A DNA stretch of 8,220 nucleotides from a virus (IMGVR_UViG_2778261515_000002:1-8220); one strand, 5' to 3'. Positions 2,304 to 8,220 are shown, counted from the stretch's first letter. Notes: generated by a model from the letters alone, not told the origin. Numbers and translations: made by a program.

Positions 2304-2430
2304 GTAAAAAAACACCCGTCAAAGGCACCCGCAGATGCCTTTTGTGTGGCGTTACCTGATGTGATGTGCGCTGGAGGTAGCGCGGAGAAAATGAAATAAG
2401 ACTTACCGGAAATTAAGGTCAATCTGAGGA

Positions 2431-2459
2431 TTTAAACCATTTTTAAAGCTTAGTAATAT
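2431..2459 (+). promoter_or_regulatory. Candidate sigma70 promoter for a plus-strand small transcript
   Basis: TTTAAA (2431-2436), 17-nt spacer, TAATAT (2454-2459). Consensus match judged by eye only. Confidence 0.3.
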
Positions 2460-2465
2460 CAACTC

Positions 2466-2614
2466 GTCTCCGGAAGGAGACCGATACTTATTCTTCTTCA
2501 CGGACTTTGTCCCGCGGCGTTAATCCGACAGCCGCGCTTTTTTTGCGCCATATTCATCGCTGACTTACATGGCATTGCCACACGGACATTATCAGTGTCC
2601 GTGTTTTCTTTTTT
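2466..2614 (+). ncRNA. Candidate small RNA, about 150 nt
   Basis: Bounded by the candidate promoter and a strong plus-strand terminator. Begins with a GGAA tetraloop hairpin GTCTCC-GGAA-GGAGAC (2466-2481). No plus-strand ORF with an SD in between; the interval holds an internal hairpin plus T7 (about 2509-2543). Confidence 0.3.
2581..2614 (+). terminator. Intrinsic terminator (plus strand)
   Basis: Perfect 8-bp stem CACGGACA / TGTCCGTG with 7-nt loop (2581-2603), followed by TTTTCTTTTTT (2604-2614). Confidence 0.6.
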
Positions 2615-2626
2615 CGAATTAAGAAT

Positions 2627-2651
2627 AAAAAAAACCGCCAGATACGGCGGT
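2627..2651 (-). terminator. Intrinsic terminator (minus strand), convergent with the plus-strand terminator
   Basis: On the minus strand the hairpin ACCGCC-GTATCT-GGCGGT (2634-2651) is followed by eight U (plus-strand A-run 2627-2634). Likely ends the tRNA/methylase transcript. Confidence 0.6.
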
Positions 2652-3013
2652 TGGTCAATGCAAGGAATGAATTTTTTAATTGTAATAAAATCGAGGCGTC
2701 GGGTGCCTCCCGAAGTATTCCGTCCTGTATGAATACTGTGGTTTCCCGCTAAACCGACTCTTTTAACCACCCTCGCCCTGAGGAGCGCCCCGATAGTGTT
2801 ATTTACAACACCAGAATGATGCATCACCGACCCTGCCAGGAAATACAAAATCTCCACCAGCAATGCACCATTCTGCTGCCGTAAAAAAATCAGCACTGAG
2901 GCTAACCTGGCCTCAAATCATAGCCAGAGAACAGAATGCTTTTTCAAAACAACCTGCTCCCACGTAATAAAAATACGCCAGTGCTGCAATACAATAAGGC
3001 TTATTTCAAATGC

Positions 3014-3088
<75 letters not shown>

Positions 3089-3094
3089 ATATAG

Positions 3095-3167
3095 TGCCGA
3101 TTACCGGAATCGAACTGGCGACCCGGTGATTACAAGTCAGTTGCTTTGTCTGCTAAGTTAAATCGGC
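3095..3167 (-). tRNA. tRNA-like gene, tRNA-Thr(UGU)-like, non-canonical (possible pseudogene)
   Basis: Reverse complement is GCCGATTTAACTTAGCAGACAAAGCAACTGACTTGTAATCACCGGGTCGCCAGTTCGATTCCGGTAATCGGCA. Perfect 7-bp acceptor stem (GCCGATT/AATCGGC), T-loop TTCGATT, and anticodon loop CTTGTAA (anticodon TGT). But the D and anticodon stems have mismatches, there is an A-C mismatch in the T stem, and the 3' tail is CTA rather than CCA. Lies 6 nt from the tRNA-Gly. Confidence 0.4.
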
Positions 3168-3348
3168 AACGGTTCCTCGGAAAAAATAAAACGACCGATA
3201 TATGCATTATTTCCCTGTCATCTCCTCGGAACCGACTATCGATATTAATGAGGGCAAACACTATTTCAATAAACATAGTGTCAATATTAGTAAATATATG
3301 TATAAATTTCTATCACTCGTGATTGATTACAAATAATCACACACATAT

Positions 3349-4395
3349 TTAACTATTTTCTTTTATTTCGCTTACAGTCTGGTTAAATCTCTCTTCTTCC
3401 AGCTCCACACCTATTGCATGCCGTCCCAGCGATAATGCTGCTTTTATTGTTGATCTCGACCCCATAAAAAAATCAGCAACCAAATCTCCCGGATGGCTGC
3501 TGGCGGTAATTATCTGACGCAACATATCCGCCGGTTTCTCACAGGGATGTTTGCCGGGGTAATACTGCACAGGCTTGTGCGTCCAGACATCCGTATACGG
3601 AACGGCAGCCGATACGGAAAAATAACGCCGCAGAGATTTGTACTCATCCAGCAGGCTGGCATATTGCCGGTTCAGTTCACTGTATGTGCTGACCAGCTGG
3701 TGGTGTGGCTTTTCCAGTTCACCGCGCTGATGTTTTTCTGCTGCAACACGCGCAAACAACGCCTGTAATTTCAGATAATCGCCTTCGTTCGGCAACTGCC
3801 ACTGACTGGTACCAAACCAGTGCGAAGCCATGTTTTTCTTTCCGGTGGCTTCCGCTATCTGTTTTGCCGTTATCCCCAGTGATTCACGCGCATCACGAAA
3901 GTAAGAAATCAGCGGGGCCATGACGTGCTGTTTTAGTTCACGCCCCTTTGCCGCATAGCCGTCATTTTTGGGCAGGTATGGCCCCTGATAATGTTCTGCA
4001 AACAGAATGCGTTCTGTTGCCGGGAAATACGCCCGCAGGCTTTCCTTGTTGCATCCGTTCCAGCGCCCGGACGGCTTCGCCCAGATAATGTGGTTCAGCA
4101 CATTAAAGCGTTCACGCATCATGATTTCGATATCAGATGCCAGGCGATGACCACAGAACAGGTAGAGACTTCCGGCAGGCTTCAGTACCCGCCAGAACTG
4201 CGCCAGACATCGGTCCAGCCATTTCAGGTAATCATCGTCGCCCTTCCACTGGTTATCCCAGCCCTCGGGCTTCACTTTAAAGTATGGCGGGTCTGTGACT
4301 ATCAGATCGACAGAATTTTCCGGTAAGGTCTGGATAAATTCCAGGCAATCAGCGTTGATTAACTCACAACTGGATATTTTTACAGTATTAGTCAT
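3349..4395 (-). CDS. DNA methyltransferase, beta-class (N6-adenine/N4-cytosine family, DPPY motif), no restriction partner in window
   Basis: 348 aa from ATG at 4395-4393. Motif IV (LIVTDPPYF) lies near the N-terminus and the SAM-binding motif I-like segment (DFFMGSRSTIKAA) near the C-terminus; this circular permutation defines beta-class amino-methyltransferases. DPPY rather than SPPY favours N6-adenine. No restriction endonuclease gene is adjacent. Confidence 0.85.
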   Translation of the reverse strand: MTNTVKISSCELINADCLEFIQTLPENSVDLIVTDPPYFKVKPEGWDNQWKGDDDYLKWLDRCLAQFWRVLKPAGSLYLFCGHRLASDIEIMMRERFNVLNHIIWAKPSGRWNGCNKESLRAYFPATERILFAEHYQGPYLPKNDGYAAKGRELKQHVMAPLISYFRDARESLGITAKQIAEATGKKNMASHWFGTSQWQLPNEGDYLKLQALFARVAAEKHQRGELEKPHHQLVSTYSELNRQYASLLDEYKSLRRYFSVSAAVPYTDVWTHKPVQYYPGKHPCEKPADMLRQIITASSHPGDLVADFFMGSRSTIKAALSLGRHAIGVELEEERFNQTVSEIKENS

Positions 4396-4535: not shown

Positions 4536-4559
4536 TAAAAAGCCTTCACTGCGGAAGGC
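4536..4559 (-). terminator. Intrinsic terminator after the small HTH gene
   Basis: On the minus strand the hairpin GCCTTC-CGCAGT-GAAGGC (4542-4559) overlaps the stop codon and is followed by TTTTTAATTT. Confidence 0.5.
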
Positions 4560-4743
4560 GTCTGTAACAACCGAACTGATAATCAGCCAGACCTGCCATA
4601 ACAAGCTGGGTCAGTATTAACTGGCAACGTTCGCGTGAAAGGTACGTATTCTGCGCAATTTCCCCGACGGTCGCCGGCTCGGTGACGCTTAATTCATTAA
4701 ACACCACTCTGGCGGTTTCGGTCATATCCTGCTGTTTTAGCAT
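4546..4743 (-). CDS. Small winged-helix DNA-binding protein, FaeA/PapI-like (putative regulator)
   Basis: 65 aa from ATG at 4743-4741 with AAGGGA 7 nt upstream (track ORF starts at an upstream TTG). The segment PATVGEIAQNTYLSRERCQLILTQLVMAGL has the helix-turn-helix pattern of FaeA/PapI-type regulators. Has its own terminator. Family assignment is by pattern recall only. Confidence 0.45.
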   Translation of the reverse strand: MLKQQDMTETARVVFNELSVTEPATVGEIAQNTYLSRERCQLILTQLVMAGLADYQFGCYRRLPQ

Positions 4744-5191
4744 GTCTTTTTCCCTTATTCCGGTTAACGTGACATACCAATAACTCTTGTCGAAAAAGCC
4801 AGCAAGCTGAAAGACCGGTATTCGCAACCACCAGCGCGTTTAACGTACTGCGCCGCTTTTCGGGCATAAAAAACCCCGTTTGGCGGCTGGTTTAAGCTGT
4901 GTGGCAAAGTGACCACTCTTAACATCATATTTAAATTTTTACGTACGTAAACCAGCACGAATTTACATTATAAAATACAAAAACAATAACTTTTCATTAC
5001 ATTTCAGAAGCGCATCTCTCATTACAAAAACATCGTCAATAATTACCAGTACGCATAAACGAGATCTTGATCACACTTTGAACCATTAAATAAACTCCAT
5101 ATCTTGAAATAGCCATACCGATTAGATGTATATTTAGGCCGCAGTGACAATATTTTTTAATAATAGTTCCGAAAAGGACTAAGGATTCACG

Positions 5192-6289
5192 ATGAAAAAA
5201 TTAACAGTGGCAATCTCTGCTGTAGCTGCGTCAGTATTAATGGCGATGTCTGCTCAAGCAGCAGAGATTTATAACAAAGACAGCAACAAACTGGATCTGT
5301 ACGGAAAAGTTAATGCCAAGCACTACTTCTCCTCTAACGATAAACACGATGGTGACAAAACTTATGCTCGTCTGGGCTTCAAAGGCGAAACCCAAATCAA
5401 TGATCAACTGACTGGTTTCGGTCAGTGGGAATATGAATTCAAAGGCAACCGTGCTGAATCTCAAGGTTCTTCCGGGGATAAAACTCGCCTTGCATTCGCT
5501 GGCCTGAAATTCGGTGACTACGGCTCCATCGATTATGGCCGTAACTACGGTGTAGCATACGACATCGGTGCGTGGACTGACGTTTTGCCAGAATTCGGTG
5601 GTGATACCTGGACTCAAACCGACGTATTCATGACTCAGCGTGCAACTGGTGTTGCAACTTACCGTAATAACGACTTCTTCGGTCTGGTTGATGGTCTGAA
5701 CTTTGCTGCTCAGTACCAAGGCAAAAACGATCGTAGCAAGCTCGATAACTATACCGAAGGTAACGGTGATGGCTTCGGTTTCTCTGCTACCTATGAATAC
5801 GAAGGATTCGGTATTGGTGCAACTTATGCGAAATCTGACCGTACCGACACTCAAGTTAATCTAGGGAAAGTTCTTCCTGGAGTATTTGCTTCCGGTAAAA
5901 ATGCAGAAGTTTGGGCCGCTGGTCTGAAATATGACGCTAACAACATTTACTTGGCCACTACCTATTCTGAAACCCAGAATATGACGGTATTTGCTGATCG
6001 CTTCGTCGCTAATAAAGCTCAGAACGTTGAGGCTGTTGCACAATATCAGTTCGATTTTGGGCTGCGTCCGTCCGTGGCTTACCTGCAATCTAAAGGTAAA
6101 GATCTCGGAGTATGGGGCGATCAAGACTTAGTTAAATATGTTGATGTAGGCGCAACCTATTACTTCAACAAAAATATGTCTACTTTCGTTGATTACAAAA
6201 TCAACCTGCTTGACAAAAATGATTTCACCAGAGGTCTTGGTATAAACACCGACGATATTGTTGCTGTCGGTATGGTTTACCAGTTCTAA
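5192..6289 (+). CDS. nmpC: Outer-membrane porin, OmpC/OmpF/PhoE family (prophage NmpC/Lc type)
   Basis: 365 aa from ATG 5192 with AAGGA SD 7 nt upstream; TAA at 6287-6289. Signal peptide [23 protein letters not shown] followed by [16 protein letters not shown], and a C-terminal ...VAVGMVYQF beta-barrel signature. Opposite strand to all phage genes, immediately downstream of Q as in DLP12 and PA-2. Codon usage looks host-optimised. Confidence 0.9.
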
Positions 6290-6310
6290 ATCTTTTTATT
6301 AAAAAAGATA

Positions 6311-6340
6311 TGTTGTGGGAGATATTTATCTCCCACAACA
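6311..6340 (-). terminator. 30-bp perfect palindrome, candidate tR'-type terminator downstream of Q
   Basis: TGTTGTGGGAGATA-TT-TATCTCCCACAACA is a perfect inverted repeat. On the minus strand it is followed by TATCTTTTTTAAT; on the plus strand it is not followed by a U-tract. Lies about 140 nt downstream of the Q stop codon. Confidence 0.45.
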
Positions 6341-6427
6341 TGTGGGTGACGCCCTCACGTCACTGCATTAAGAAAGACATTTTGTCTTTTCTTTTTAACC
6401 TTCTGTTATTTATTACTCTAAACTCTT

Positions 6428-6456
6428 GGGGGCGTTTTTGCGTCCCCTTTTTTATT
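6428..6456 (+). terminator. Intrinsic terminator of the porin gene (plus strand)
   Basis: Stem GGGGGCG / CGTCCCC with loop TTTTTG, followed by TTTTTTATT. Confidence 0.55.
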
Positions 6457-6478
6457 CAATTTTACCAGCAAACGTTAA

Positions 6479-6862
6479 TCAATAACATCTAACAACTTCA
6501 AGATCCATCTCGAGACGAACATCCAGTGCCATCAACATTCCGTCGACTATTCCTTCAGCCTTCTGAAGTTTTTTTCCTATATATCCATCAGAACAATGAT
6601 GCTTACGGGCCAGTGCCATAAACGTCATACCAGCCACATAATAATCTACCAGCAAATCATGCAAATCACTGTTGTTCTTTTTCAAACGAGCCATACACCC
6701 ACAAATAACCATTGCGTCATCATCACTACATTGCGGTCGCGATTTAACCTTTGAAGGAATAAGTCCCTTGAATCCGGCTGCAATCGATGACCAGGTGACA
6801 TCCTCATGATTATTTGCCACCCATGCCCCCCAACGCTCAAGAACCATCTGAATATCACGCAT
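6479..6862 (-). CDS. Late-gene antiterminator Q (small Q family, quuD/phage-82-like)
   Basis: 127 aa from ATG at 6862-6860 with AGGAGGTG SD upstream. Begins [14 protein letters not shown] and contains the Cys-rich segment [18 protein letters not shown]. Located before the porin as in DLP12 (quuD-nmpC). Confidence 0.8.
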
Positions 6863-7119
6863 CAGCGCAGCACCTCCTGCACCAGTTTTTCAAACTTTCC
6901 AACTCTGGTTTCCAGCTCTGCCACACAATCCACCAGCTCATCCACCGCTTTTTGTGCGCGGTGTTTCGCCTGCATCAGTTCCCTGAGCGCTGGCACCATA
7001 TCCCGACGAATGGCATCTTTTGTTACACCTGTTTTTTCCAGTTGTTCCGCCTGTCGCAACATTTCCTGTGCCTGTTTACGTAATTGTTCAGGGGTAAAAG
7101 GTGTTGTCTGGTTGTTCAA
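6862..7119 (-). CDS. Hypothetical small coiled-coil protein
   Basis: 85-aa ORF whose first codon is TTG (7119-7117), overlapping the helicase stop (TTGA); its stop overlaps the Q start (TGATG). The first in-frame ATG is at 7062 (66-aa alternative). Strongly helical, charged sequence; no recognised family. Confidence 0.4.
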
Positions 7120-8220
7120 AAGAAACGCTCCATCTTACTGCTGTCAGTTCGTTTGTTGCTGTATCTGCGCGGCTGGGGCTGCTGCATTGGGGTAGAAAGA
7201 ATCTGTGCGCTTTCCTGATCCACAGGCAGAAAATGTCCGTTATAAAAACGCCGGTAAATCGTTCCCAGAGAACCGTTACGTTGTTTCGTGATATTGATTT
7301 CTGCGATGCCCCTGGCCTGCGTATCCGGGTTGTACACTTCATCCCTGTAAAGCATCAGAATGATGTCTGCATCCGCCTCTATTTCTCCGGAATTTTTCAG
7401 GTCTGAGTTCATGGGGCGTTTATTGGGCCTGGACTCCACACCGCGGGAGAGCTGACTCAACGCAACCACCGGTAATCCGCCGGATTTTGCCAGGCCTTTA
7501 AGCCCCTTTGAGATTTCACCCACGGCAAGGTCATGACGCCCCGTGCTCCGGGTTTTTATCAGCCCGAGATAATCAACCACCACCAGCGCCGTTTCCGGAT
7601 GTTTAATCAGGTGGTGTTTCGTTGTTGCGTATATCTCGTCAATGGTCAGGTTCGCCTGGTCCACCATCCAGATATTGCGCCCGGTCATCCGCCCCACTCC
7701 TTGTGAGAAACGTGCCCAGTCTTCGTCTTCAAAGTGAGTGACAGATTTCAGGCGTGATACCGGCATTCCTCCAGCCGCAGATACCATGCGCTCACCAATC
7801 TGGATGTTCGCCATTTCCATTGTGAACAGAAGAACACCATGCCCCTGCTCAGTCACCTTGTCGATGATATCCAGCGCCAGTTCGGTTTTACCCATCGAAG
7901 GACGAGCCGCAATAAATACCAGGTCGCCGGGTTCCATACCGCCTGTTTTTGCGTCCAGTTCATCAATACCGGTCATCAGCGTCCTGGATTTCTCCAGCCC
8001 CTGATTCCGGCATTCAACACGTTCAACCACTTCCGGAAGCACATCATCAATATGTACCGGCTGAATAATACCCTTCCCCGTCGACAATGAGGCCATCATG
8101 TTCTGCGCATCCTTCAGAGCATCTTCAGCTGCTTCACAGGTATGCGCATCACGTAATTTCTGTAATGAACCGCCCCGGAAATCCTGGAGACTAAACTCCC
8201 TGAGAAAGAGGTAAACAGGA
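7116..8220 (-). CDS. DnaB-family replicative DNA helicase, 5'-partial (N-terminus beyond window end)
   Basis: The frame is open from the window edge (8219) to TGA at 7118-7116, about 367 codons in the window. DnaB C-terminal RecA-like domain with Walker A (IAARPSMGKTELA), the ...LMTGIDELDAKTGG... linker and ...ADADIILMLYRDEVY... The track ORF begins at an internal Met (8099). Confidence 0.85.
   Translation of the reverse strand, partial: PVYLFLREFSLQDFRGGSLQKLRDAHTCEAAEDALKDAQNMMASLSTGKGIIQPVHIDDVLPEVVERVECRNQGLEKSRTLMTGIDELDAKTGGMEPGDLVFIAARPSMGKTELALDIIDKVTEQGHGVLLFTMEMANIQIGERMVSAAGGMPVSRLKSVTHFEDEDWARFSQGVGRMTGRNIWMVDQANLTIDEIYATTKHHLIKHPETALVVVDYLGLIKTRSTGRHDLAVGEISKGLKGLAKSGGLPVVALSQLSRGVESRPNKRPMNSDLKNSGEIEADADIILMLYRDEVYNPDTQARGIAEINITKQRNGSLGTIYRRFYNGHFLPVDQESAQILSTPMQQPQPRRYSNKRTDSSKMERFF

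Follow-up and report, generated by a model that had tools for sequence, protein, structure and literature searches.

An intact NmpC/Lc-type porin gene with an ipeX-like 3' region, located between Q and a predicted late promoter in a phiP27-like prophage of porcine ETEC Escherichia coli

Described relatives of the locus

The NmpC/Lc family of prophage porins is already known with respect to gene family, position and function from work of 1985-2006. Among the described genes closest to the one analysed here is lc (protein 2) of phage PA-2 (J02580), from a porcine E. coli isolate. Its product has the same length as the porin of the window (365 aa), the same 23-residue signal peptide, and 94.8% sequence identity, equal to 19 amino-acid differences. 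The window is the whole stretch of viral DNA that was analysed, 8,220 nucleotides (IMGVR_UViG_2778261515_000002:1-8220). In PA-2, as in the window, the porin gene is convergent with the adjacent antiterminator gene Q, the upstream region (with an annotated CRP site in PA-2), the 3' untranslated region (UTR) and the terminator are homologous, and the block that contains the late promoter pR' lies on the far side of the porin gene. The two phages differ in their backbones, which are lambda-like in PA-2 and phiP27-like in the window (HK97-type head genes, P27-family terS, methylase, tRNA), and from the CRP site to pR' they share no related sequence. The residues at which the window porin differs from Lc and NmpC cluster at 51-56, 95-99, 149-154, 183-184, 224-230, 270-279 and 347-352, positions that are expected, from general porin topology, to be surface loops.

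The same gene order, Q - ipeX/terminator - porin - pR' block - lysis genes, is found in DLP12 (qsr') of E. coli K-12, in which QuuD is 89% identical to the Q protein of the window and NmpC is 97.1% identical over the 346 codons that precede the IS5 insertion. K-12 nmpC is interrupted at this point, whereas the reading frame of the window is intact. Directly after pR', K-12 has the lysis genes, whereas in the window an L23-like ORF, the methylase and the tRNA come first. Castillo-Keller et al. (J Bacteriol 2006) reportedly placed ipeX between the nmpC stop codon and the terminator, and PA-2 lysogens are said to lower OmpC through ipeX. The ipeX of DLP12 is described as a 167-nt RNA that is part of the porin transcript and represses ompC and ompF (PMC12197685, PMC5069750).

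A more distant relative is nmpC of the P1-like phage P7, with 81% identity at the protein level. It shares with the window the conserved -35 element, the CRP site, and the ipeX-like hairpins with the terminator, but its context is different, as it lies between odaA and ssb, without Q and without pR'. Since all of these elements are kept in P7 despite the unrelated context, promoter, porin gene and UTR must travel as one cassette. The pR'/StxS module of 933W and Sakai Sp5 is related to the window in another part: the -35, the spacer, the -10 and the first ~60 transcribed nucleotides are homologous, with the common pattern TTTACG-16-TAT(G/C)AT, then (T/A)TAAGAGTGGT..., and Q belongs to the same family (81% identity). 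The promoter of 933W overlaps the end of Q, whereas in the window a porin cassette of 1.5 kb lies between them. The 3' part of the 258-nt RNA of Sakai/933W, which yields the 74-nt StxS, is not conserved in the window.

The window is 100% identical, over the 2.1 kb tested, to a chromosomal prophage of porcine ETEC E. coli (e.g. ETEC4085, NZ_CP122634), and by this match is a phiP27-like prophage of such strains. It shares the gene order of the Stx2e phage phiP27, except that stx is missing, and the two backbones are ~93% identical outside Q; the prophage is a toxin-less relative of the Stx2e phage. The minus-strand genes are, in order, the helicase, an 85-aa ORF and Q; the L23-like ORF and the DNA methylase; tRNA-Gly; two holins and an M15 endolysin; HNH and the P27-family terS. 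The ORF at 5192-6289 is the sole plus-strand gene, with all phage neighbours on the opposite strand. In phiP27, stx2e A and B follow the tRNAs, at a place (2400-3350) where the window has nothing but low-GC non-coding DNA and a hypothetical ORF of 132 aa (2498-2896). A second tRNA-like sequence (3095-3167, minus strand) adjoins tRNA-Gly and reaches 45.9 bits in Rfam (gathering score 29), although it is called neither by ARAGORN nor in the RefSeq annotation and has mismatches in the anticodon stem. It may be a decayed tRNA, at the place where phiP27 and 933W carry ileZ and argO.

Table 1. Features of the porin cassette and its surroundings, in window coordinates
Feature	Position	Strand	Basis or remark
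tRNA-Gly	3014-3088	-	beside second tRNA-like sequence
Methylase	3349-4395	-	phage neighbour
Terminator-like hairpin accompanying L23-like ORF	4559-4542	-	predicted
L23-like ORF, 65 aa, first gene after pR'	4546-4743	-	late-transcription direction
Late promoter pR' and early-transcribed block	4951-4866	-	homology to 933W/Sakai pR'
pR' -35, TTTACG	4951-4946	-	alignment with 933W
pR' -10, TATGAT, 16 nt after -35	4929-4924	-	alignment with 933W
pR' start, inferred	near 4917	-	~7 nt after -10
pR' block T-run	4873-4868	-	part of pR' block
CRP-like site cGAGA-N6-TCACA, upstream of porin promoter	5060-5075		aligns with CRP site of PA-2 record J02580, 1363-1383
Putative porin promoter: -35 TTGAAA 5104-5109, -10 TATATT 5129-5134, 19-nt spacer	5104-5134	+	inferred
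Ribosome-binding site AAGGA, 6 nt before ATG	5181-5185	+	read from sequence; AAGG invariant in 7 homologous upstream regions
Porin gene, NmpC/Lc type, 365 aa	5192-6289	+	ATG 5192, TAA 6287-6289
Porin signal peptide, 23 residues (MKK...AQA then AEIYNKD)	5192-5260	+	matches sig_peptide annotated for lc, GenBank J02580
Porin 3' UTR, ipeX-region homologue, 164 nt	6290-6453	+	conserved covarying structure
Hairpin 1	6308-6343	+	RNAalifold, seven variants
Candidate terminator for early transcription leaving Q: hairpin 1 on minus strand, then ATCTTTTTT	6341-6300	-	-25.8 kcal/mol, z -6.3
Hairpin 2	6346-6363	+	RNAalifold, seven variants
Hairpin 3	6370-6393	+	RNAalifold, seven variants
Conserved single-stranded stretch AACCTTCTGTTATTTATTAC	6397-6416	+	RNAalifold, seven variants
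Predicted intrinsic terminator of porin/ipeX transcript: GGGGGCGT-TTTT-GCGTCCCC then T6	6428-6453	+	-15.3 kcal/mol, z -4.6
Antiterminator Q, 127 aa, convergent with porin	6479-6862	-	PF06530 E 6e-54
Helicase	7116-8099	-	phage neighbour

The porin gene and its flanking elements

The reading favoured here, with a probability of roughly 0.8, is that a self-contained NmpC/Lc moron with its own transcription was inserted between Q and pR', lies outside the Q-dependent unit, and swaps the porins of the host. The reading frame is intact from start to stop codon. Porin_1 (PF00267, Pfam) covers residues 29-365 with the whole profile (1-337 of 337, E 5e-155), and solved chains of OmpC, OmpK36 and OmpF match with E values from 1e-138 to 1e-109, those of OmpC and OmpK36 at ~1e-138. 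The eyelet motif PEFGG of loop L3 is found at P133-G137 and is invariant in the 10 porins compared; the protein ends in VYQF, i.e. with a terminal Phe. By its 62-67% identity to solved porins it would form a trimeric 16-stranded beta-barrel with a channel. A 205-aa antisense ORF (5237-5854) and other ORFs that overlap the porin gene were taken as shadow ORFs of a strongly supported gene.

The preliminary description had reported an intact OmpC-family porin gene of the NmpC/Lc type on the strand opposite to the phage genes, with a K-12 homologue inactivated by an insertion, and in these respects it was accurate: the identity to Lc and NmpC is 95-97%, and it is IS5 that splits the K-12 gene. Its statement that the codons are host-optimised holds relative to the neighbours but not relative to chromosomal ompC. 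The codon adaptation index (CAI, with weights after the Sharp and Li table) of the porin gene is 0.515, which is more than 5 sd above the 18 other prophage genes (mean 0.28, sd 0.045, maximum 0.38), but well under that of K-12 ompC (0.82). Together with the AT-rich flanks (31% and 35% GC), this difference in CAI argues for the autonomy of the cassette. The same description had also given the porin gene a terminator of its own facing Q, and this was confirmed as a predicted element with an 8-bp GC stem (6428-6447) followed by T6 (6448-6453). On the reverse strand the same region forms a weak hairpin (-9 kcal/mol, z -0.7) without a U-run.

Upstream of the gene, the -35 element (CTTGAAA) is invariant across 7 diverged alleles, that of phage P7 included, and so are the A-rich -10 region, the GCAGTGAC leader motif and the ribosome-binding site. 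The -10 hexamer itself is a predicted element; the consensus promoter scan gave no call at 5104-5134, for which the 19-nt spacer is too long. In the P7 and UMNF18 alleles the columns of the CRP site show a perfect TGTGA-N6-TCACA, while the left half is weak in the window (3/5).

The region downstream of the stop codon, which the preliminary description missed, is the part of the cassette that acts most directly on host porins. By homology it is an ipeX element, and it would be expected to be active in the window's strain. It is conserved in DLP12, PA-2, ev243, E. albertii and other phiP27-like prophages, and also after nmpC of P7, in an unrelated context. Compensatory changes occur in 11 of the 35 predicted UTR pairs, and 94.7% of the UTR cells are paired, as compared with 44-56% when the partners are slid; none of 500 shuffles reached the observed value. 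Rfam contains no ipeX or StxS model and gave just weak sub-threshold matches in the UTR region. When one genome per species was scanned for the ipeX stretch, only 6 loci came up, from E. coli, E. albertii and two MAGs, and for one locus the homology did not extend beyond the motif; the ipeX-type element is essentially confined to Escherichia. The prophage sRNA svsR (PMC12247714) was considered as a possible relative; it sits at the 3' end of cI and was rejected as unrelated.

The stop codons of the porin gene (6289) and of Q (6479) are convergent on opposite strands, as they are in DLP12, 434B and ev243, and a tail-to-tail overlap of the early Q transcript with that of the porin is predicted over the whole ipeX region, about 6300-6453. 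Read on the minus strand, hairpin 1 has a perfect 14-bp stem in the window allele (6341-6310) and could halt early transcription from Q just ahead of the porin gene. Because other alleles contain G-U pairs in this hairpin and the P7 allele lacks the T-run, hairpin 1 is taken to be conserved mainly for the plus-strand RNA.

An intact porin gene does not guarantee expression, since a title cited by PMC3333887 terms nmpC quiescent in E. coli B. The gene of the window might likewise be an intact yet quiescent passenger, for example one repressed by H-NS on its AT-rich flanks, with the lysogen unaffected under ordinary conditions, and the weak left CRP half-site of the window allele would agree with such silence. 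Homologues in other prophages are expressed, however: the NmpC gene of prophage Perceval in LF82 is 10-fold over the prophage background (PMC9928086), and in CFT073 a strong induction at 37 C, as RNA and as protein, is described for two nmpC genes (PMC12890032). Selection is implied by the conservation, across diverged alleles, of reading frame, promoter elements, CRP site and 3' UTR structure alike, and the high CAI relative to the neighbours also speaks against a passenger. A quiescent gene is therefore considered unlikely; expression of the cassette in the window's strain, from the predicted promoter and with the help of CRP, remains the preferred reading.

Predicted late promoter and direction of late transcription

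The Q protein of the window is a distant relative of Q21 and is 48% identical to that of phiP27. The pR' block has the pattern TTTACG, 16 nt, TATGAT, then GTTAAGAGTGGTCACTTTGCCACACAGC... and a T-run, and it is common to the window, to phiP27 (between L22 and L23) and to 434B/DLP12 (between the 5' side of nmpC and the holin gene). It aligns with pR', qut and the terminator annotated in 933W, which in that phage overlap the end of Q; at the block the sequences of Sakai Sp5 and 933W are identical, and the block is present in 84 phage records. In AF125520 the pR' of 933W is annotated as 'putative', and its tie to experiment runs solely through the geometry of a 258-nt RNA. The pR' transcript in Sakai was determined as 258 nt by dRNA-seq and Term-seq (PMC7547250). 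The distance from a start ~7 nt past the -10 to the end of the second annotated terminator in 933W/Sakai is ~258 nt, and this fit supports the promoter position. The pR' sequence string, when searched in full-text literature, returned just unrelated papers.

According to the preliminary description, Q-dependent late transcription must run antisense through the porin gene; in a model built on this, late transcription on induction would pass through the gene and silence it by transcriptional interference. The layout at first sight permits this, as the opposite-strand porin gene is indeed flanked by Q and the lysis genes, and pR' comes directly after Q in lambda, 933W and most textbook lambdoid phages. 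The 190 nt after Q in the window, however, contain no pR'-like sequence and are taken up by the porin terminator and the ipeX-type UTR. No promoter-like site was found by the consensus scan on the minus strand from 6479 to 5192, nor a second copy of pR' by pattern search. The only homologue of the 933W/Sakai pR' is the single copy found by the same pattern at 4951-4912, past the 5' end of the porin gene, and the block is likewise located beyond the porin gene in DLP12, 434B, PA-2, mEp332, ev207 and 1W. Since pR' lies beyond the porin gene and points away from it, the gene would not be traversed by Q-dependent transcription, which is predicted to start near 4917 and to proceed toward lower coordinates. 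The antisense arrangement is thus very improbable. The statement that the porin gene is situated between Q and the late genes is correct with regard to the lysis genes, but the gene lies upstream of pR' (4951-4924, minus strand) and is not part of the late transcription unit.

Several further properties of the pR' region were observed. The proximal hairpin is degenerate in the window allele (CCAGCCGCCAAACGGGG, as compared with CCCGCC..GGCGGG in phiP27). Of the 258-nt StxS precursor, the 5' part is homologous to the short RNA that pR' should give, and the 74-nt functional 3' part is not. Constitutive transcripts from pR' may continue into the L23-like ORF, with the hairpin at 4559-4542 as their end. 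The 1986 record of PA-2 has a second upstream 'CRP site' (1067-1087, corresponding to about 4897-4917 of the window) that falls within the early-transcribed region of pR'; its sequence, GAGTGGTTACTTCGTCACACAGC, contains an imperfect inverted repeat, GTGG..CCAC, and may be a Q-loading or pause element and not a CRP site. The same pR' block adjoins both types of Q, that of the window and that of phiP27 (48% identical to each other), so that either the two types share promoter specificity or the determinants reside in the few bases that differ.

Family placement, the Q-pR' junction and biological meaning

In addition to the identities to Lc and NmpC given above, the porin is 90% identical to that of phage ev243 and 61.9-66.9% identical to OmpC, OmpN, PhoE and OmpF of K-12, with 65.5% to OmpC alone. 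By the contrast between 95-97% identity to Lc/NmpC and only 62-67% to OmpC/OmpF/PhoE/OmpN, the porin belongs with the prophage porins NmpC/Lc and not with chromosomal OmpC. Its RefSeq product name is nevertheless "porin OmpC", a label that reflects the NCBIfam model NF007841 (OmpC), which is a subfamily model and no equivalog and is matched with 531 bits (cut-off 484). That chromosomal ompC gave rise to the gene by displacement or duplication, as this name and a score above the cut-off would have it, is hardly credible in view of 66% identity to K-12 OmpC versus 95-97% to Lc and NmpC and of a prophage site beside Q with an ipeX UTR, not the ftp-ompC-micF locus, micF being absent as a neighbour. 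Porins of the NmpC/Lc kind are encoded in 42 phage records, and the stretch of Q and porin was found at a coverage of at least 80% in 2352 of 5426 complete E. coli genomes (~43%). The porin of the Salmonella phage SPF_0923 record (ON032529), which also appeared as a match, is 99.7% identical to K-12 OmpN and is flanked by homologues of ydbK, uspF and sitA, which suggests the presence of chromosomal DNA in this record.

The distance from Q to the pR' block varies among phages, and so does the content of the gap. Q and block overlap in 933W and are 58 nt apart in Stx2_95, with nothing between them in either phage. A DnaD_N/HTH ORF is located between them in 7888 and 75/02 (about 0.8 kb), L22 in phiP27 (about 1.3 kb), and a porin gene in the window (about 1.5 kb, from the Q stop at 6479 to the -35 at 4951) and in mEp332, ev207 and 1W (about 1.66 kb). 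DLP12 and PA-2 have their porin genes in the same place. Reverse-strand ORFs of unknown function, without a family match, occupy the gap in Stx2a_1447 (about 1.6 kb) and Stx1_14744 (about 2.2 kb). L22 of phiP27 (7319-8548; the slot corresponds to 4960-6478 of the window) has a T5orf172/MUG113 domain and matches PD-Lambda-1 in PADLOC with E 2e-89. Because the block abuts Q in some phages and is separated from it by unrelated cargo in others, the junction between Q and pR' can be regarded as an insertion slot. Its cargo may comprise a porin with ipeX, as in the window, DLP12 and PA-2, or a defence gene of the PD-Lambda-1 type, as in phiP27; in some Stx1 and Stx2 phages it would be reverse-strand ORFs that are uncharacterised. 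Because Q is only 48% identical to that of phiP27 while the backbones are ~93% identical, Q and porin look like a module that was exchanged into a phiP27-like phage, and the conserved pR' block is a likely crossover point for this exchange. A wider proposal, that the gap is a recurrent slot for lysogeny-expressed exclusion or defence cargo and that induction neutralises ipeX or the porin mRNA by antisense pairing, coupling the porin swap to the lysis-lysogeny state, is regarded as rather doubtful.

For the self-contained cassette, the following course of events is proposed. The cassette would consist of its own CRP-assisted sigma-70 promoter, a ribosome-binding site, a signal peptide, a structured ipeX-type 3' UTR and an intrinsic terminator. 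In the lysogen the porin gene would be transcribed independently of the repressed phage operons and yield a general-diffusion porin, while the RNA of the 3' UTR would lower OmpC and OmpF of the host, so that the porin set of the outer membrane would be swapped. Such a swap would change permeability and take away OmpC or OmpF as phage receptors. Upon induction, Q would load onto RNA polymerase at pR', and the modified polymerase would move away from the porin gene and transcribe the L23-like ORF, followed by methylase, tRNA and the genes for lysis and packaging. The sole possible antisense transcription would be early transcription past the end of Q, which would meet the strong hairpin and T-run at the 3' end of the porin gene.

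Prophage porins of the NmpC/Lc family should accordingly not be read as OmpC, nor assumed to lie inside the late operon. Because the cassette sits insulated between Q and pR', expression of the porin should not disturb late transcription, nor late transcription the porin. In porcine ETEC, a prophage that carries an intact NmpC/Lc porin and its ipeX tail may alter antibiotic permeability and the availability of phage receptors, an effect that is known as such, and the Q-porin module is carried by roughly two of five complete E. coli genomes.
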